Shown: positions 2,078 through 31,052 of the stretch, in pieces
Layout of the letters: the number at the start of each line of letters is the position of its first letter
How positions within the stretch are numbered: the stretch's first letter is position 1
Source of the DNA: Escherichia phage Shy
Reading direction: 5' to 3' (one strand)
Sequence record: OR996328
DNA: 42,805 bases
Position numbers and translations under genes: made by a program
The notes under the pieces: generated by a model
The model's input: the letters and a program-made list of their open reading frames with translations, nothing else
Databases searched by the model: none
Told to the model about the DNA's origin: nothing

Positions 2078-3625
2078 ATGCCAAACGTATCGTTTATTCG
2101 CCCGGAACTTGCCGCAGTAATGCCGCTGTACAAAAAGATTCGGGATTGTTTGTCCGGTTCGGACAAAGTAAAGGCGGCCGGTGTCGTCTATTTGCCGATG
2201 CCGAACGAAGCCGATAAGTCGCCGGAAAACATCGCCCGTTACAAGGGCTATAAAGGCCGCGCCGTGTTCTACAACGTCGCACGCCGAACGCTGGCCGGTC
2301 TGTCGGGCCAAGTGTTCGCCCGCGACCCCGTGTCGGAAATTCCCGACGCACTGGATATAGTCGAAACCGACGCAACCGGAACCGGCGTATCGGCCGCACA
2401 ACAAGCTAAACGCCTGTTGAATTACGCACTTGGTTATGCGCGTGGCGGTATTTACGTCGATTATCCGAATACCGGCGAAGAAGGCGCAACCAAGAAAGAA
2501 CTAGACGCCGGGCACCTTCGCCCGACGATTACCGTTTGCGACCCGAATACCGTTGTCAACTGGCGTACAATTCAGGTTGGCGCTAAAACCCTGCTGTCGC
2601 TGGTCGTAATCGCCGAATCTTGGCCGTTCTACGACGACGGCTTCGAAATCAAACACGGTTGCCAATTCCGCGTTATGTCGCTGGAATACGAAGCCGACGA
2701 AAACGGTAACGTTGTCGGCGAAACGAAATACAAAGTCGAAATCTACCGGGAAAAGTCGCCGACGGTTTGGAACGGCGATAACATCCCGAAGAACAAATCG
2801 TTCGAACTGAAAGAAGGCCCGTTTTATCCAACCGGCCCGGACGGTTCGAACATCCAAGAAATCCCGTTTATGTTCGTCGGTTCGGAAAACAACGATACGT
2901 CGGTCGATAACCCGCCGTTCATTGACCTTTGCGAACTGAACTTAGCGCATTACCGCAATTCGGCCGATTACGAAGAAGCGTGTTACGTCATGGGCCAGCC
3001 GACTTACTGGTTCAGCGGTCTTACCGAAGAATGGATGAAAAACGTTCTTGGCGGCCAAATCAAGTTGGGTTCGTGGGGCGGCGTCGCACTTCCGCCGAAT
3101 GCGCAAGGCGGCTTGCTGCAAATGCAGCCGAATACCATGCCGTTCGAAGCAATGGGCCACAAAGAAAACCAAATGGTCGCATTGGGCGCAAAGCTGGTCG
3201 AACAAAAGTCGGTACAACGTACCGCAACCGAAGCGCAACAAGACGAAGCCGCCGAATCGTCGTTCTTGGCCGCAACTGCGAAGAACGTATCGGCCGCGTT
3301 CGAATGGGCCTTCGGCTGGTGCGCGTTCTATATGGGTTTGGACGAATCCAAAATCGTATATCAACTTAACACCGACTTCGACTTGATGAAACTTTCGGCC
3401 GCAGACCGCGCCGAAACTATCAAGGAATGGCAAGGCGGCGCACTTACCTTCGCCGAAATGCGGGCCGTACTTCGTAAAGGTGGCGTCGCCACCGAAGACG
3501 ATGCCGAAGCGAAAAAGAAAATCGACCAAGAACAAGCCGACCAAATCGCGGCCGCTGCAAAGGCTATGGGTGAAGACCCGGCCGCCAGCAATCCGCAGCC
3601 GTCTAATGTGGGCAACGGGGGTTAA
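2078..3625 (+). CDS. portal protein
   Basis: 515 aa ORF directly after terminase; AAAGGGG RBS; acidic/low-complexity C-terminus typical of portals. Confidence 0.7.
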   Translation: MPNVSFIRPELAAVMPLYKKIRDCLSGSDKVKAAGVVYLPMPNEADKSPENIARYKGYKGRAVFYNVARRTLAGLSGQVFARDPVSEIPDALDIVETDATGTGVSAAQQAKRLLNYALGYARGGIYVDYPNTGEEGATKKELDAGHLRPTITVCDPNTVVNWRTIQVGAKTLLSLVVIAESWPFYDDGFEIKHGCQFRVMSLEYEADENGNVVGETKYKVEIYREKSPTVWNGDNIPKNKSFELKEGPFYPTGPDGSNIQEIPFMFVGSENNDTSVDNPPFIDLCELNLAHYRNSADYEEACYVMGQPTYWFSGLTEEWMKNVLGGQIKLGSWGGVALPPNAQGGLLQMQPNTMPFEAMGHKENQMVALGAKLVEQKSVQRTATEAQQDEAAESSFLAATAKNVSAAFEWAFGWCAFYMGLDESKIVYQLNTDFDLMKLSAADRAETIKEWQGGALTFAEMRAVLRKGGVATEDDAEAKKKIDQEQADQIAAAAKAMGEDPAASNPQPSNVGNGG

Positions 3626-3627
3626 TC

Positions 3628-4728
3628 ATGGCACGCGTATTATTGAATCGGAACCCGCCAAACGCGAAACGTTTGTTCGACGTAATCACGCGCCAACAAA
3701 TCTACGTCGAAGGCGTAAAGCTGTCGGAAGCGAACACGTTTCGCAAAGTGGTTCAAGAACTGTCGGACGAATTCCGCCAACTGTTAAGCCGCTTGCAATA
3801 CAGTACGCTTGACGGAATGACCAAGGCGGAACTTAACCGGTTTATCGTGACGCTTCGTAAATCGCAATCGAAGATTTACAACAAGTACACGCAAGACCTG
3901 TTAGACCAACTTTACGCATTCATGCGAACCGATAAGCGCGTATCGCTTCGCGTTTACGGCGCGTTGGTTTCGGATAGCGACGACGTAACGGAAGACGAAG
4001 CCGACGACCTGTTGCAACAGTCGAAAGACGAATCGTTGTTCGTGCCGCTATTCGGTTGGGCGTCGCTTGCGCGGTCGGAAGACGGCGATTCGCGGTTGTG
4101 GTCTACCATCGCGAACAACCCGATTCCGGCTAACGGCCTGTTGCTTGGCGCGTTTATCGCCGGGTTCAGCAAGTCGGCGCAAGCCGCAGTCGAAAACCTG
4201 ATTCGTCAAGGTTGGGCGAATCAATGGACGGTTAACCAGACCATCGCCGCGATTACGGGCAACCGTGGCGCACTCGACCGCATTTACAGCCAGAACACCG
4301 CAGTAACAGCAACCGTTATTCAGCATATCGCCCAAAGCGTCGGGGCCGCCGTGTCGTCGGCCTTTGCGGGGCGGTATCGTTGGGATTCGATAATCGACAA
4401 TGCGACGACCGAAATTTGCCGGGGGCGTAACCAACGTGTTTACGTCTTCGGAAGGGGGCCACTTCCCCCGGCGCATATTCGGTGCCGTTCGCGCATTACG
4501 CCGATTTTCGGAAACGGCCCGACGGATGGTGACGGAAGCGACGAAACGTTTTATACTTGGTCGCGTCGCCAACCTGAAAGTTTCTTGCGCGACGCATTTA
4601 CGAAAGAAGCGGCCGACGCGCTAACCAGCGGTAAGGCACGCGCAAAAGACTTCACCGAATACCGGGCCGAAAAACCCGTATCGGTTGAACAGTACGCCGA
4701 CAAAGTGTCGGATATTTTGAAACGCTAA
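3628..4728 (+). CDS. head morphogenesis protein (Mu F / SPP1 gp7-like)
   Basis: 366 aa immediately after portal; C-terminal CRGRNQRVYVFGRGPLPPAHIRCRSR region resembles Mu-F-like minor head proteins. Confidence 0.55.
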   Translation: MARVLLNRNPPNAKRLFDVITRQQIYVEGVKLSEANTFRKVVQELSDEFRQLLSRLQYSTLDGMTKAELNRFIVTLRKSQSKIYNKYTQDLLDQLYAFMRTDKRVSLRVYGALVSDSDDVTEDEADDLLQQSKDESLFVPLFGWASLARSEDGDSRLWSTIANNPIPANGLLLGAFIAGFSKSAQAAVENLIRQGWANQWTVNQTIAAITGNRGALDRIYSQNTAVTATVIQHIAQSVGAAVSSAFAGRYRWDSIIDNATTEICRGRNQRVYVFGRGPLPPAHIRCRSRITPIFGNGPTDGDGSDETFYTWSRRQPESFLRDAFTKEAADALTSGKARAKDFTEYRAEKPVSVEQYADKVSDILKR

Positions 4729-4744
4729 CGAAAGGTAAACCGAA

Positions 4745-5446
4745 ATGGCGCTGAAACTCAAAATCACTAAAGAAGTTTTCGACAAGCTGTCGGATGCCGT
4801 CAAAGCCGAATACTTCGAAAAAGATGGCGAATACCATCTTGACGTTGACGGACTGGAAGATACCGGCGCACTTCGCCGCGCAAAAGACCACGAAGTCAAA
4901 CAGCGTAAAGAAGTCGAAGGCAAGTTGCGCGACGCCGAAGAACAAATCGCAACGCTTACCAGCGAAGTTCAAGGCAACGCCGCCAAGTTCGATAAAGAAC
5001 TGAAAAAGCAACTTGGCGAGAAAGACGGCCAGTTGACGAAGGCGAACGCGTTTATCCAATCGACTTTGGTTGATTCGGTCGCAACCAAAATCGCAACCGA
5101 AATCAGTACCGCCCCGGCGTTGCTGATTCCCCACATTAAGGCCCGTCTTACCGCTGACCTTAGCGGCGACGCCCCGGCTACCAAAGTCCTTGGGGCCGAT
5201 GGTAAACCGTCCGAAACGACCATCGAACAACTTACCGCCGAATTTGTTGCCAACAAGGATTTTTCTGCTATTATCCGGGGTAACAAAGCGTCCGGGGGCG
5301 GTGCCCCTAAGACTGGCGCTTCTGTCAACGGCGGTGCCGGTAAGTTCAACAACGATTCCGACAAACCCGCCGACCTGTCGAAACTGAGTCCCCGCGACCT
5401 TGCGGCCCGGATTCAGGCGCAGAAGGCGGAAGCAAACAACCAGTAA
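4745..5446 (+). CDS. capsid scaffolding protein
   Basis: 233 aa, charged, coiled-coil-like (KQRKEVEGKLRDAEEQIATLTSEV), directly upstream of major capsid gene. Confidence 0.55.
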   Translation: MALKLKITKEVFDKLSDAVKAEYFEKDGEYHLDVDGLEDTGALRRAKDHEVKQRKEVEGKLRDAEEQIATLTSEVQGNAAKFDKELKKQLGEKDGQLTKANAFIQSTLVDSVATKIATEISTAPALLIPHIKARLTADLSGDAPATKVLGADGKPSETTIEQLTAEFVANKDFSAIIRGNKASGGGAPKTGASVNGGAGKFNNDSDKPADLSKLSPRDLAARIQAQKAEANNQ

Positions 5447-5461
5447 TAAGGACGCTATATC

Positions 5462-6430
5462 ATGGCACTTTCCGACCTCGCGGTATATTCCGAATACGCC
5501 TATTCTTCGATGACCGAAGTTCTGGCGCAGCAAATCGAACTGTTCAACGGCGCTTCCGACGGCGTTATCGTTCTGGTTCCGGCCGCGCATCAAGGCGACT
5601 ACTCCGACGAAGCCTTCTTCGCGAAGATTTCCGGTCTGGTTCGCCGCCGTAACGCTTACGGTTCCGGCGCAATCGCACAAAAGACCCTGAAACATCTGGT
5701 CGATACGTCCGTTAAGGTCGCGGCCGGTACTTCCGAAATCCGCCTTGACCCCGGCCAGTTCCGTTGGATTCAACAGAACCCCGAAGTCGCTGGCGCGGCA
5801 CTCGGTCAACAACTGGCGGGCGACCTGCTGGCCGATATGCTGAACACCGCTATCGGTTGCGGTGTTTCGGCCCTGTCGGCGCAATCCGCCGTCGTCAAAG
5901 ACGATTCGACTTCCGACCCGTCTTTCGTCGGCCTGACCGAAGCCGCTGGCCTGTTCGGCGACCGTCAAAACGCCATTCGTGCATGGATTATGCATTCGAC
6001 GCCGGTTACTAAACTGTACGTCAATGCGCTGACCAACGCCGAAAACCTGTTCAAGTACGACACGGTTAACGTTATCCGTGACCCGTTCGGCCGTCTGTTC
6101 GTCGTGACCGACTCGCCGTCGCTGCAATGGTCGGTAACTACCCCGTCCCCGGCTTCCGGCTTTATGTCGCTGGGTCTGGTACAGGGCGGTATCTACGTCG
6201 GTCAAAACAACGACTTCGACGCCGCCGAAACCGTGGCAACCGGTGACGAAAACATCAAACGGACTTACCAAGCCGAATGGTCGTACAACGTCGGTATTCA
6301 GGGCTTCGCATGGGACAAGCCGAACGGCGGCAAATCGCCGACCGATGCGGCGCTGTTCACGGCGTCGAATTGGGATAAGTATTCCACTTCGCACAAAGAC
6401 CTTGCGGGCGTTCTGTACAAGACCAAGTAA
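5462..6430 (+). CDS. major capsid protein
   Basis: 322 aa after scaffold gene; preferred-codon usage; followed by a strong intrinsic terminator. Confidence 0.75.
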   Translation: MALSDLAVYSEYAYSSMTEVLAQQIELFNGASDGVIVLVPAAHQGDYSDEAFFAKISGLVRRRNAYGSGAIAQKTLKHLVDTSVKVAAGTSEIRLDPGQFRWIQQNPEVAGAALGQQLAGDLLADMLNTAIGCGVSALSAQSAVVKDDSTSDPSFVGLTEAAGLFGDRQNAIRAWIMHSTPVTKLYVNALTNAENLFKYDTVNVIRDPFGRLFVVTDSPSLQWSVTTPSPASGFMSLGLVQGGIYVGQNNDFDAAETVATGDENIKRTYQAEWSYNVGIQGFAWDKPNGGKSPTDAALFTASNWDKYSTSHKDLAGVLYKTK

Positions 6431-6444
6431 GGGCCGCGACGGGG

Positions 6445-6466
6445 CGGGGGCTTCGGCCCCCGTTTT
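6445..6466 (+). terminator. rho-independent terminator after major capsid gene
   Basis: CGGGGGC-TTCG-GCCCCCG 7-bp GC stem with TTCG tetraloop followed by TTTT. Confidence 0.7.
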
Positions 6467-6493
6467 CGCAACTAACCGACGGGAATTACGGCA

Positions 6494-6991
6494 ATGAATC
6501 TCAAACAACCGAAAATCATTTTCTTTATCGACGGGCCTGTTCCGTCGGAAGCCGAAAAGCTGGACGCTTTCGATTTGGGCGTCCCGGTTCAGTTCCGCAA
6601 CGCGCAACACGTTAGCCGCATCGAAGAAGAATGCGACGGCGTTACCGGTCACGTACCCGAAGCGTACAAAGACCATCCGACGGCCGAAGACGCTTTGAAG
6701 GCGTACAAAGCCGAAGTGAAGAAAGCGCGTGCGAAACTGCTGGAAGTCGGCGGCAAAGCCCCGAAACCGGGCGAATCGACCGAAACCGGTAACAAGACCG
6801 GCGACGGCGACAAAAAGGACGGCCAGCAAGGGGCCGCAGCGGGCCAAGGTGACGCGAACGACGGCAAGGGCGGGCCTACCCCTACCCCGACCGAAGAAGA
6901 CCCCGCCAAGGCCGCCGCAGCCGCCGCAGCGGGCGCACCTGCAACCCCGGCTAAAGGCACCCCGGCCGCTAATGGCTGGAAACAGAACTAA
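6494..6991 (+). CDS. hypothetical head-associated protein with low-complexity Ala/Gly/Pro-rich C-terminus; paralog of next gene
   Basis: 165 aa; N-terminal region (IIFFIDGPVPSEAEK...CDGVTGHVPEAY) aligns with the N-terminus of the 7053-7514 product. Confidence 0.5.
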   Translation: MNLKQPKIIFFIDGPVPSEAEKLDAFDLGVPVQFRNAQHVSRIEEECDGVTGHVPEAYKDHPTAEDALKAYKAEVKKARAKLLEVGGKAPKPGESTETGNKTGDGDKKDGQQGAAAGQGDANDGKGGPTPTPTEEDPAKAAAAAAAGAPATPAKGTPAANGWKQN

Positions 6992-6996
6992 GGCCG

Positions 6997-7032
6997 TGCC
7001 CGATGCCGACGGCTTATTGTGGGCATCGGGCA
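6997..7032 (+). other. stable hairpin between paralogous genes (11-bp perfect stem, 14-nt loop)
   Basis: TGCCCGATGCC ... GGCATCGGGCA inverted repeat; no U-tract; 3' arm contains a TGTGGGCA motif copy. Confidence 0.45.
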
Positions 7033-7052
7033 ATTGACAAGGAATCTATTCG

Positions 7053-7514
7053 ATGAAAGTTCTTTTCTTTACGTCCGGTGCGGTGCCGACTACCGACGAA
7101 CGAAACGCGATTGCGGCTATCGTCGCCGGTAACGTTGACATTCTGGTTCGCAACGGCGCGGCAAACGCTGAATACGGGGCCGACCGTCTGGAACCGTGCG
7201 ACTACGTTTTCGACAATGCGAACATTCCCGACGCATACGCCGATGTTCCGACGACCGACAACCCGCATATTCCGGCGAACGGCGCTATCGTCACCGACGG
7301 CCAAGCGTTGAACGTTTCGAACAGCGCGGGCGACGCCTTTGTCGCTTCGGCGATTCACGTTGCCGACGGCGTGGCCCAATGGGCGAACCTTCCGGCGACC
7401 CATGCCCTAGCCGTATCCGGTGAACTTACCGGCATCGCGGCAACTGGTACGGGCACCAAAGTAACGCTAACCGTTACCGACGGCAAGATTTCCGCCGTCG
7501 CGCTGTCGGCGTAA
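7053..7514 (+). CDS. putative capsid decoration/accessory protein with C-terminal Ig-like (Big_2-like) domain
   Basis: 153 aa; N-terminus paralogous to 6494-6991; C-terminal GIAATGTGTKVTLTVTDGKISAV resembles bacterial Ig-like domains. Confidence 0.45.
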   Translation: MKVLFFTSGAVPTTDERNAIAAIVAGNVDILVRNGAANAEYGADRLEPCDYVFDNANIPDAYADVPTTDNPHIPANGAIVTDGQALNVSNSAGDAFVASAIHVADGVAQWANLPATHALAVSGELTGIAATGTGTKVTLTVTDGKISAVALSA

Positions 7515-7525
7515 GGGGTTCGACT

Positions 7526-8056
7526 ATGGCAATCGAAATTGTCGTCGAAGACGGAACCGGTAAGGCAAACGCCAACAGTTACGTTTCGGTTGCCGACGCC
7601 CGCCAGTATGCCGCGAATCGTGGTGTAACGTTGGGCGACGACGAAGCAATCGCGGCGCAACTGATTAACGCAACCGACTACCTGTTGACGTTCGAATGTG
7701 AATACGTCGGCTATCGCACCAACGACGGGCAAGCCCTTTCGTGGCCGCGTACCGATGCGTATTACGGCGGCGGGTGTTCCGGCAAGTTGATTGCAGCGGC
7801 CGACGAAGTACCGGCACAAATCAAAGCGGCGCAGTGTCAAGCCGTAATCGCGCAGTTCAACGGCATAGAACTTATGCCGAACTATACGGCAAGCGACTTC
7901 GTAACCGAAGAAACTGTCGGCCCGATTACGACCAAGTACGCCGACCCGCTGGCGGTTGGAATGCGCCCGACGCTTTCGGCCGTTGATTCGATGTTAGCCC
8001 CGCTGTTCGGCAAATGCGCCACTAACGGCGGCATGTTGAAAACGGTTCGGGTGTAA
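7526..8056 (+). CDS. head-tail connector protein (gp6-like)
   Basis: 176 aa; N-terminal YVSVADARQYAANRGVTLGDDEAIAAQLINATDYL resembles the gp6-like connector signature; position after capsid genes. Confidence 0.5.
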   Translation: MAIEIVVEDGTGKANANSYVSVADARQYAANRGVTLGDDEAIAAQLINATDYLLTFECEYVGYRTNDGQALSWPRTDAYYGGGCSGKLIAAADEVPAQIKAAQCQAVIAQFNGIELMPNYTASDFVTEETVGPITTKYADPLAVGMRPTLSAVDSMLAPLFGKCATNGGMLKTVRV

Positions 8057-8058
8057 TT

Positions 8059-8448
8059 ATGGGCGTATACGACCGACAAATCGCCACGGCGAAACGGCTT
8101 ATTGCCAAATACGGCGAATCCGTAACTTGGCATTCGGCCCCGCCGTCGCAACCAGCCGACGACGATACGCCTTGGAACGGGACGGACGTTCCGCCAATTG
8201 ACCGGCCGGGGATTAAGGTTGCTTTCTTCCCGACGAATTCCAGCATCGGCCAGCTTATCCGCTTTATGCGGAATAGCGATGTTCCGACGGGTAACGAACT
8301 CGGTTACATGGCACAAGTCCCGTTCGAAGTTTCGTCGTTGGATACGTTGACGCGGGGCGACGGTTCGGTTTACCGAATCAAAAACATCGACCCAATCCGG
8401 CCGAATGGTGAAGGCGTTATCTTGTATACGTTGGAGTTTCAAGAATGA
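8059..8448 (+). CDS. putative head closure / head-tail joining protein
   Basis: 129 aa; call by size and position between connector and tail genes. Confidence 0.35.
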   Translation: MGVYDRQIATAKRLIAKYGESVTWHSAPPSQPADDDTPWNGTDVPPIDRPGIKVAFFPTNSSIGQLIRFMRNSDVPTGNELGYMAQVPFEVSSLDTLTRGDGSVYRIKNIDPIRPNGEGVILYTLEFQE

Positions 8449-8920: not shown

Positions 8921-10450
8921 ATGGTCTGCGACGTTAACAAAATCGACAGCAATATTTCGGGCCTTTCGTTCGCCGAAGAAGAATGCTTGAAACAGCTTCC
9001 GGCTTCGCCCGTTTGGTACGGGCTGGAACCGAACAGCTATTCGGACTTCGGCGGCGAAGTTACGACCGTGGCACGCGCCCCGATTGACCCTTCGCGCCAG
9101 CGGAAGAAAGGCACCGTTACCGACTTGGACGCTTCGGGCGGTTTCAATACCGACGTAACGGCCGACAACATTACCCGGCTTATGCAAGGCTTTTGCTTTG
9201 CCGATGCCCGCCAGCAACCGCAAACCGCGCCGTTGAATGCGGCTAAAGTTTCGATGACCGGCGTAGACGGCGACGAAATCAAGTACACCGCCGCTTCTGG
9301 CTTGGGTATCTTCGCGGCCGGTGACTTGGTTGTCGCAAGCGGTTTCGCGGTGCCCACAAACAACGGCATGAAAAAGGTTAGCGACGCAATCGCAACCGCC
9401 GTTACCGTATGGGGCGCGTTGTCCGACGAAGGCGCGGCACCGAACGGCGCACTTACCCGCGTTGGTCACGAATTCGCATCGGGCGACGTTGCGTTGACCT
9501 ATGCGGCCGGTCTGCTGACCCTGACCGCGACGGCCGGGTCGTTCGCCTTTGGCCTGATTCCGGGTCAATGGGTGTTCATCGGCGGCGATGGCGCTGGCAC
9601 TTCGTTTGCCAACAACGTCGGTTACGCCCGCGTTGCGGCCATTTCGACCGACAACAAAACCGTTACGCTCGACAACGCCACTTGGACGCCTGTAACCGAA
9701 GCCGGAACCGGTATCACGCTGCAAGTATACTTCGGCACCGTCATTCGTAACGAAAAGTCGGCCAACCTGATTAAGCGCCGTTCGTACCAACTGGAACGCA
9801 CGCTAGGCCAAGATGCCGACGGTATGCAATCCGAATACCTTGTCGGTGCCGTCGCAAACGAATTCACCTTGAACATTCCGCAGGCCGACAAGCTGAACGC
9901 CGACGTTACCTTTGTAGCGTGCGACAACGAACAGCGTACCGGTGCGGTTGGCCCCAAGGCTGGTACGCGTGTTTCGGCGCTTGGTCAATCGGCGTACAAC
10001 ACTTCTTCGGACGTTTACCGTATCCGTATGTCGGTCAACAATTCGGCGAACCCGAATCCGACCCCGCTGTTCGGTTACATTTCCGAAGGTTCTATCGAAG
10101 TGAACAACAACATTACGCCGAACAAAGCGGTCGGCGTGTTGGGTGCGTTCGACACTTCGGCGGGCGACTTCGAAGTCGGCGGGTCTGTTACCGCTTACTT
10201 TACCACTGTTGCGGCAACCCAAGCGGTACGCAATAACGCCGACGTTGGTATCTACGCGATTCTTGCGGCAAACAATCGCGGCATGATTTACGACATTCCG
10301 TTGCTTTCGCTTGGCGGCGGTCGTATCAACGTCGAAAAAGACAACCCGATTACTGTTCCGTTGGATACCAACGGCGCAGAATCGAAATTCGGCCATACGC
10401 TGTTGGTTGAATTCTTCGAATACTTGCCAAACAAGGCAATGCCGCAGTAA
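8921..10450 (+). CDS. putative major tail (tube) protein
   Basis: 509 aa; sits directly upstream of the G/GT chaperone pair; followed by a strong terminator. Confidence 0.5.
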   Translation: MVCDVNKIDSNISGLSFAEEECLKQLPASPVWYGLEPNSYSDFGGEVTTVARAPIDPSRQRKKGTVTDLDASGGFNTDVTADNITRLMQGFCFADARQQPQTAPLNAAKVSMTGVDGDEIKYTAASGLGIFAAGDLVVASGFAVPTNNGMKKVSDAIATAVTVWGALSDEGAAPNGALTRVGHEFASGDVALTYAAGLLTLTATAGSFAFGLIPGQWVFIGGDGAGTSFANNVGYARVAAISTDNKTVTLDNATWTPVTEAGTGITLQVYFGTVIRNEKSANLIKRRSYQLERTLGQDADGMQSEYLVGAVANEFTLNIPQADKLNADVTFVACDNEQRTGAVGPKAGTRVSALGQSAYNTSSDVYRIRMSVNNSANPNPTPLFGYISEGSIEVNNNITPNKAVGVLGAFDTSAGDFEVGGSVTAYFTTVAATQAVRNNADVGIYAILAANNRGMIYDIPLLSLGGGRINVEKDNPITVPLDTNGAESKFGHTLLVEFFEYLPNKAMPQ

Positions 10451-31000: not shown

Positions 31001-31052
31001 AGTTTCACCTGAAAAGCCCGGCGGCCTAATGTGGGCAACCGGGCGTCGTTGA

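Follow-up and report, generated by a model that had tools for sequence, protein, structure and literature searches.

Tandem paralogous genes behind the major capsid gene of Escherichia phage Shy, the conserved stem-loop between them and a dispersed octamer

Introduction

In Escherichia phage Shy (sequence record OR996328), two small tandem genes separated by an inverted repeat follow the gene of the major capsid protein. Do they encode two alternative capsid-decoration proteins whose stoichiometry is set by the intervening hairpin, as an earlier note on this DNA had suggested? We analysed the whole stretch of 42,805 nucleotides (nt), hereafter the window, which we liken to phage Halfdan, and we call the two genes A (6494..6991, + strand) and B (7053..7514, + strand) and the hairpin between them stem-loop 2 (6997..7032, + strand). 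The locus was compared with 80 related loci from IMG/VR, collected with the capsid protein as query, and with annotated phages. The succession of capsid gene, terminator hairpin, type-A gene, RNA hairpin, type-B gene and adaptor gene proved to be conserved as part of the late head operon across a broad siphophage lineage, which spans Halfdan/Loki, Septimatrevirus, Kilunavirus, Titanvirus and many uncultivated relatives.

Results

A and B are paralogues with different C-termini

Both open reading frames (ORFs) were found where the earlier note had placed them, and their products of 165 amino acids (aa) for A and 153 aa for B share an N-terminal domain, here called the N-domain (residues 3-74 of A, nt 6500-6715; residues 1-79 of B, nt 7053-7289). 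BLASTP aligned the two products with 33% identity over 69 aa (E = 6e-07), and the alignment was confined to their N-termini. Profile searches gave the same answer: phrog_9062 was matched by A (E = 3.7e-22) as well as by B (E = 2.5e-07), and a hidden Markov model (HMM) of the shared domain, built from the related loci, matched A with E = 9e-25 and B with E = 6e-23. B also matched phrog_10405, labelled 'virion structural protein' (E = 6.3e-16), and phrog_9732. The conserved columns of the domain (F11, R35, N36, E45, D48, V50, G52, P55 and Y58 in A numbering) agree with the FF..G.VP-type pattern proposed earlier for the pair. We conclude that A and B are true, ancient paralogues with a common alpha/beta N-domain of about 75 aa.

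AlphaFold2 models computed from family alignments gave the N-domain a strand-helix-strand-strand order, with a predicted local distance difference test score (pLDDT) of about 85-90 in both proteins. Beyond this domain the two products differ, as had been noticed. A continues with a predicted helix (residues 64-85) and a disordered region rich in Ala, Gly, Pro and Lys (residues 87-165), modelled with pLDDT <50 from residue 94 to 165 and ending with the peptide GWKQN (nt 6974-6988); 73% of residues 75-165 are A, G, P, K, E or Q, which bears out the low-complexity tail of the earlier description. The C-terminal domain of B (residues 80-153) is beta-rich and was modelled as a five-strand region of modest confidence (C-terminal pLDDT 50-72). 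Its earlier assignment as an Ig-like (Big_2-like) domain had to be abandoned: residues 70-153 matched no Pfam family even at E up to 10, and Foldseek returned no PDB structure with E <0.28. Among the predicted viral structures of BFVD, B retrieved its own family and small podophage proteins, including a phi2 hypothetical protein (E = 2.7e-05); the fold matches named as virion or structural proteins, in PM16 (E = 0.15) and LKA1 (E = 0.6), were not significant. The N-domain profile had no match among PDB sequences. A fusion of A to B by read-through or frameshifting was rejected, as the two genes lie in different frames (2 for A, 0 for B) and a slippery site is absent; a frame-0 ORF (6729-7037) ends at the TGA at 7035-7037, ahead of B.

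Type A is universal and type B is optional. An N-domain ORF lay directly 3' of the capsid gene in 71 of the 71 loci that hold both the capsid gene and the adaptor gene Ad1. Its copy number varied, with one copy in Loki-like phages (81-174 aa), two in the window, PaMx42, KL1, Pavpe01 and RcTitan, and elsewhere one copy next to an unrelated ORF of about 200 aa; about half of the relatives carry type A only. Identity was 39% among first-position copies and 42% among second-position copies, against 27% between positions; copies from the same locus had a mean identity of 28% and a maximum of 36%, and the nearest neighbour was of the same type for 81 of 87 proteins. Tails differed by type as well. 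Those of type A are of low complexity, typically with 55-90% A/G/P/K/E/Q, and 40 of 61 distinct first-copy proteins carry a C-terminal (A/G)-W-(K/N/T/Q)-P-N, a place taken by GWKQN in the A of the window. Those of type B are beta-rich and often end with V-(V/I)-T-G-(I/F)-V-L-S, the tryptophan motif occurring in only 1 of 28. Since identity is higher within than between types, neighbours are mostly of the same type and the tails differ by type, the duplication is an old one, and the two types are old orthologous groups rather than a recent split into alternatives.

The family is large. An HMMER scan of 1.84 billion representative proteins returned at least 1,479 members (clustered at 50% identity), 815 of them at E <=1e-10; the 150 best-scoring members were almost all 80-270 aa long, with the domain beginning at residue 1. 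Pfam has no model for it. Members of phrog_9062 and phrog_10405 include ORF011/ORF012 of Pseudomonas phage 73, PaMx42_12/_13, gp12/gp13 of KL1 and gp12/gp13 of RcTitan, and PaMx42, KL1, Pavpe01 and RcTitan have the same gene order and intervening hairpin as the window; we found no statement on the paralogy of the two PHROGs in the annotations and literature examined. In some members (P0066, P0070, P0071, P0075, P0078 and P0080) the tail is replaced by an acidic linker and a module of HeH/Rho_N type (PF12949, PF07498), and others bear extensions of 466-854 aa; L051 4044-5477, L073 1306-2706, P0091 and P0093 are listed with these exceptional members. Domain scans of the long members gave sub-threshold matches only, among them one that was polysaccharide-lyase-like. 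Many records misname type-A genes as 'DNA polymerase III subunits gamma and tau' (for example in Suba, vB_Pae_W3, UF_RH9 and Ps23.PMD), an error probably caused by their low-complexity tail, rich in Ala, Pro and Lys.

A conserved stem-loop at the 3' end of gene A

The perfect 11-bp inverted repeat without a U-tract that had been noticed between the two genes was found exactly as described. The arms of stem-loop 2, TGCCCGATGCC at 6997-7007 and GGCATCGGGCA at 7022-7032, pair perfectly around a 14-nt loop; the bases 3' of the stem are AATTGACAAGG, hence the missing U-tract, and our terminator scan did not call it. In a context of 76 nt the predicted fold had an energy of -29.4 kcal/mol (z = -3.75), and 1 of 200 shuffled sequences was as stable. 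Only one other perfect close inverted repeat of at least 11 bp was listed for the window; conservation of the hairpin in relatives is a stronger argument against chance than this rarity.

In 18 distinct sequences the type-A gene was followed by a homologous stem-loop. Loci with a single N-domain gene were among them, which assigns the hairpin to the 3' end of the type-A gene. Compensatory pairs were seen at four stem positions (A-T, C-G, T-A and G-C at position 9; G-C/C-G swaps at positions 10-12). The covariation lies beyond the part of the stem that is made of an octamer, TGTGGGCA, described below, and that part is invariant. G·U pairs on the sense strand occurred in 17 of the 18 stems, where the opposite strand would have A·C mismatches. 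Covariation and sense-strand G·U pairs together point to selection on the sense RNA, and stem-loop 2 is probably a conserved sense-RNA element. Its homologue in PaMx42, again between the paralogues, is annotated as terminator_2. A U-tract follows the stem in PaMx42 and in four further loci (L007, L011, L018 and L023; about 5 of 18) and is absent in the window, Pavpe01, KL1, RcTitan and others. The proposal that the hairpin sets the expression of A and B is therefore upheld in part: the element is real, conserved, placed to step down expression and annotated as a terminator in PaMx42, but here it lacks a U-tract.

Another terminator-like hairpin, hairpin 1 (6442..6469, + strand), is predicted directly 3' of the capsid gene, with arms CGGGGGC and GCCCCCG around TTCG, then TTTTCGC. 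Most related loci have a GC-rich stem of the GGGGCTTCGGCCCC type and a T-run at this position, annotated as terminator_1 in PaMx42. The sequence of hairpin 1, GGGGGCTTCGGCCCCC followed by TTTT, was missed by the simple terminator scan. Gene B has its own Shine-Dalgarno-like AAGGAA (7039..7044, + strand), 8 nt ahead of its ATG and outside stem-loop 2. No promoter-like sites were reported between 6430 and 7053. A perfect TTGACA at 7034-7039 was rejected as a promoter, as a usable -10 element is absent and would fall inside the start codon of B; TTGACA is not kept in L083 or Pavpe01, where only the part GACAAGG near the ribosome-binding site of B is common. Rfam families matched the region 6300-7700 at chance level only (E >=0.8, 14-18 bits against gathering scores of 35-60).

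Presence of A and B in virions

Were A and B both to decorate the capsid surface, the N-domain would be the anchor, the C-termini would be displayed and stem-loop 2 would set the ratio between the two proteins. A conserved N-domain with C-terminal modules as diverse as disordered tails, beta domains, HeH/Rho_N modules and very long extensions is typical of anchored display, the genes are strictly linked to the capsid gene, and type-B relatives are labelled as virion (structural) proteins in Kakheti25, PaMx42, Ab26, Suba and others. Type-A relatives, however, never bear this label and are called either 'hypothetical' or, wrongly, gamma/tau. The virion proteome of phage phiAxp-1, established by liquid chromatography-tandem mass spectrometry, lists 18 proteins (PMC4764938, Table 3). 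They include the capsid protein, with an exponentially modified protein abundance index (emPAI) of 757, the portal, the adaptor and the tail tube, along with helicase, recombinase, terminase and clamp in trace amounts. The table has no entry for orf45, which lies just 3' of the capsid gene and is the only type-A gene of this phage. The orf45 product has the N-domain, ends with PAGWVSGN and yields four tryptic peptides of 7-30 aa. With four usable peptides, and with trace proteins detected, a stoichiometric decoration protein should have shown in phiAxp-1. In the paper on phage Loki, which used denaturing gel electrophoresis (SDS-PAGE) only, the equivalent gp07 is given no role. Nor is a post-capsid protein modelled in the deposits for the solved relative, Acinetobacter phage SH-Ab 15497 (capsid 9k4g/8xb6, portal 8xb5, tail tube 8xan); a literature search for these entries found no paper.

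Structure gave decoration no help either: two structure predictions and three fold searches yielded no specific match of A or B to a known decoration fold, there was no sequence likeness to known decoration proteins, and B has no Big_2 signal. We therefore regard surface decoration by both proteins as unlikely. What stands of that claim is the virion label of the type-B relatives; what speaks against it, besides the phiAxp-1 proteome and the lack of any such label for type A, is that the two types are old orthologous groups, that so many relatives make do with type A and that the fold of neither is like that of a known decoration protein. In the virion, B probably serves as an accessory protein of low copy number, and A is more likely a head morphogenesis factor that is not part of it.

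A dispersed octamer in the loop of stem-loop 2

Stem-loop 2 contains the motif CTTAT-TGTGGGCA (7013..7025, + strand), whose octamer (7018-7025) extends from the loop into the first bases of the 3' arm. CTTAT-TGTGGGCA words are present in all homologous hairpins, and the 13-mer pattern has 8 matches in the window against 0.11 expected. The octamer itself occurs 20 times against 0.2-0.75 expected, and is the most over-represented 8-mer of the window under Markov models of orders 2-4 (P from 1e-22 to 1e-33). Twelve copies are on the + strand (3607, 7018, 11499, 15272, 17941, 21390, 24623, 27140, 31030, 35475, 39292 and 42338) and eight on the - strand (1923, 9351, 15428, 19070, 23442, 32374, 34402 and 39964). 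It is also the top 8-mer of PaMx42 (15 copies), Pavpe01 (18), KL1 (18) and RcTitan (17), with strand ratios similar to the 12:8 of the window. At least two copies were found in 52 of 84 loci of 3.5-8.5 kb, and the extended consensus reads SSSSS-N-T-A-W-TGTGGGCA, that is five G/C-rich positions, N, T, A and A/T before the octamer. In SH-Ab 15497, which has the same capsid type and different annotated replication genes (DNA polymerase I, PcrA-type helicase), the octamer is absent.

In Escherichia phage Halfdan_Juelich_variant (PP954860), 4 of 20 octamers are intergenic, in a genome with a non-coding fraction of only 3.2%, and the 16 coding copies divide into 8 sense and 8 antisense. The absence of a transcription-strand bias indicates that the octamer signal acts on DNA and not on RNA, and on this ground a promoter or other RNA-level role of the octamer genome-wide was rejected. 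Copies on the + strand are evenly spaced, with a coefficient of variation (CV) of 0.17 in the window and 0.20 in Pavpe01 (P about 1e-4 or less against random placement, and <1e-4 for the window); spacing is less even in PaMx42, KL1 and RcTitan. One octamer sits at the A/B junction in all five of these genomes. A second conserved hairpin, at 31016-31044 in the window, also carries the octamer in its loop and has counterparts in Pavpe01 (L086, about 40261), KL1 (L087, about 32448) and PaMx42 (L085, about 32181); it lies between a Sak4-like recombinase gene and the next gene, in the leftward replication operon, and in PaMx42 its octamer falls inside the span of terminator_7, annotated on the opposite strand. 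The reverse complement, TGCCCACA, stands between Shine-Dalgarno sequence and ATG of several early genes, as in AAGGAG-TGCCCACA-ATG; examples are the - copies at 39964 and 32374 in the window and the copies at 42191 in PaMx42, 41816 in KL1 and 35616 in RcTitan. A host Chi site is an unlikely explanation, since the same word occurs in phages of Pseudomonas, Burkholderia and Rhodobacter. In the searchable literature we found no description of the octamer, only an incidental listing in a table of KL1 ribosome-binding sites.

Stem-loop 2 might on this evidence be mainly a DNA element that offers the octamer to a phage enzyme, for priming or single-strand initiation by a primase-helicase or as a nick site like those of T5, phiKMV and tf, with any effect on transcription being secondary. 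The octamer-bearing oligonucleotide sequence named for the priming idea is SSSSSNTAWTGTGGGCA. The wide distribution of the octamer, top 8-mer in five phages with hosts across the alpha-, beta- and gamma-proteobacteria, its indifference to the transcribed strand, its regular spacing, its presence in the loop of a second hairpin and its retention at the A/B junction all favour such a role, and nick consensus sites have been documented in tf and phiKMV-like phages (PMC3517423). On the other hand, the G·U pairs of the stems are better explained by folded sense RNA than by DNA cruciforms, a hairpin is missing at most octamer copies, known nick sites are placed on a single strand whereas the octamer is on both, and several relatives have a bona fide U-tract after the stem. 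We rank a mainly DNA-level hairpin after surface decoration, and likewise as improbable.

Genomic setting

The region 4700-8100 shares 99.9% identity with Halfdan_Juelich_variant, a Lokivirus whose isolation host is Pseudomonas taiwanensis, and 99.2% with phage Halfdan; for Pavpe01 and the phage 73/PaMx42 group the value is about 70-76%. The genes of the late head module are ordered portal, SPP1-gp7-like head morphogenesis protein, scaffold, capsid, A, B, adaptor Ad1, head-closure protein Hc1, tail terminator and tail tube. The portal gene is an intact ORF of 515 aa (2078-3625), and the scaffold gene lies at 4745-5446. The major capsid gene (5462..6430, + strand), which anchors the module on its upstream side, encodes a Gp13-like, HK97-type protein (PF20036, E = 1.5e-123; phrog_247), whose closest solved relative is the SH-Ab 15497 capsid protein (PDB 8xb6/9k4g, E = 3e-94). 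The head-tail adaptor gene Ad1 (7526..8056, + strand; phrog_477, E = 5e-53; PF20557) is the downstream limit of the module.

This position between the capsid gene and the connector genes Ad1 and Hc1 would also suit head-completion factors that act near the portal or neck and are not partners of the shell, and proteins of low copy number would be detected weakly or not at all by proteomics. The genes track the capsid protein family, however, with only a terminator in between, and fold searches found no similarity to known connector or stopper folds; a neck-proximal role thus seems quite improbable. That the inverted repeat is a chance palindrome of a GC-rich genome and the protein similarity a low-complexity resemblance, as the 54% G+C content, the many small stems and a terminator-like scan without excess (35 hits against 35.6 in shuffles) might suggest, is effectively refuted by the compensatory changes of the hairpin across 18 sequences, the type-wise identity data and the family HMM, whose profile-level support concerns the ordered N-domains and not the low-complexity tail.

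Several annotations of the region are misleading. In PP954860, a 674-aa antisense 'hypothetical protein' (record 2588-4612; window 4652-6676, - strand) is annotated over the scaffold gene, the capsid gene and the 5' third of A, and an out-of-frame 102-aa ORF (record 4665-4973; window 6729-7037, + strand) over the 3' half of A and the hairpin. Both coding sequences are almost certainly mis-called, to judge by the overwhelming homology support for the sense-strand genes. A mechanical antisense ORF of 793 aa (window 4652-7033, - strand), which starts inside stem-loop 2 and crosses A, the capsid gene and the scaffold gene, misleads gene callers; codon composition as the cause of this long stop-free frame is a guess. 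The portal and the large terminase are present in PP954860 (record 2-1561 and 41239-42855) only as misc_features 'similar to ...'. The window is 52 nt shorter than PP954860, with indels beyond about 11.7 kb. The tail tube protein (window 8921-10450) has 509 aa, and its match to the Phage_tube_2 profile of 266 positions covers residues 12-482, a span that suggests a large inserted domain.

Discussion

We propose that the piece of operon between the capsid gene and Ad1 encodes two head-docking proteins of different fate under graded expression. The N-domain would dock onto the head, with the capsid protein or a different head component as its partner, and the differing C-termini would give A and B different roles. 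B, with its folded beta-rich C-terminal domain, would be a low-copy accessory protein of the virion. A, with its helix, its disordered linker of about 80 aa and its terminal W-x-P-N peptide, would more likely be a non-virion helper of head assembly or DNA packaging. In the sense transcript, stem-loop 2 would act as a read-through attenuator (a partial terminator), as a stabiliser of the 3' end or as both, so that expression would fall stepwise, from the capsid protein to A and from A to B and the connector genes. Where relatives have kept the U-tract it is a canonical intrinsic terminator; in the window the U-tract has been lost. The stem-loop is built around one copy of the octamer, whose role would be played at the DNA level. 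We give this reading as a whole, of a conserved operon piece with a non-virion helper, a low-copy virion protein and an attenuating or stabilising hairpin, a probability of about 0.45.

A bolder reading can be put forward tentatively, although we consider it doubtful. The A/B hairpin would be one of two conserved stem-loops that show a regularly spaced, lineage-wide DNA signal, with 15-20 copies per genome of about 43 kb, to a phage enzyme such as a sequence-specific primase or nickase; separately, the N-domain would be a new head-binding module, one paralogue of which serves as a helper like gpFI of phage lambda. If true, a large group of siphophages, with hosts among the alpha-, beta- and gamma-proteobacteria, would have a system of genome punctuation that has not been described.

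Several points weigh against the operon reading that we prefer. The evidence on Halfdan itself is non-experimental. The 'virion protein' labels come from database annotation, and the single negative proteome, that of phiAxp-1, could have missed a protein that is small or lost during purification. The deposited models of SH-Ab 15497 lack the post-capsid protein and the adaptor alike; they are uninformative either way. The hairpin of the window has a long loop and no U-tract, and real termination at this place may be weak. As the octamer is kept inside the hairpin, selection at the DNA level could maintain its sequence. Finally, A matches gpFI neither in sequence nor in fold.

The gene pair itself is ordinary late-operon architecture, already sequenced. 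What it reveals is a large family, absent from Pfam, that always accompanies one type of capsid and whose members have no described function, structure or capsid location. Its clean split into a universal form, probably absent from the virion, and an optional virion form offers a testable entry into head assembly in phages used against Pseudomonas, Acinetobacter, Burkholderia, Stenotrophomonas and Xanthomonas. Public annotation is corrected at two places, the naming of type A as gamma/tau and the antisense ORF drawn over scaffold, capsid and A in the Juelich variant. The octamer is the more surprising result: its enrichment of about 25- to 100-fold and its conservation in phages whose hosts belong to three proteobacterial classes point to a signal at the DNA level that has gone unrecognised.

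How do these elements compare with known systems? The octamer resembles the nick sites of T5, phiKMV-like phages and tf, which are also short consensus sequences, lineage-specific, present in about 5-20 copies per genome and at conserved positions; those sites are found on one strand only, whereas the octamer occupies both. Stem-loop 2 shares with intrinsic terminators a GC-rich sense-RNA stem directly 3' of a highly expressed late gene. It differs from them, in its window copy, by the missing U-tract, the 14-nt loop and the conserved sequence of loop and 3' arm.

Decoration and cement proteins (gpD of lambda, Hoc and Soc of T4, Ig-like Big_2 decorations, Dec of P22/L) are like A and B in that their genes adjoin the capsid gene and that a conserved anchor carries variable exposed parts; B is also like them in that its relatives are reported as virion proteins. 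The folds of A and B showed no relation to those of known decoration or cement proteins. For A the closer comparison is with gpFI of lambda, reportedly a DNA-packaging chaperone built of two parts with a long flexible linker and found outside the finished virion. Its C-terminal domain is said to bind the head, and it would act by contacting the capsid protein. The genes of gpFI and A are small and stand between those for the capsid and for head-tail joining, and both proteins combine a folded module with a flexible linker, by prediction in the case of A. The C-terminal domain of gpFI is its head-binding part, whereas the conserved fold of A is N-terminal and its C-terminus a short W-x-P-N peptide. 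By gene position and build, A may be likened to gpFI, as an analogy and not a homology.

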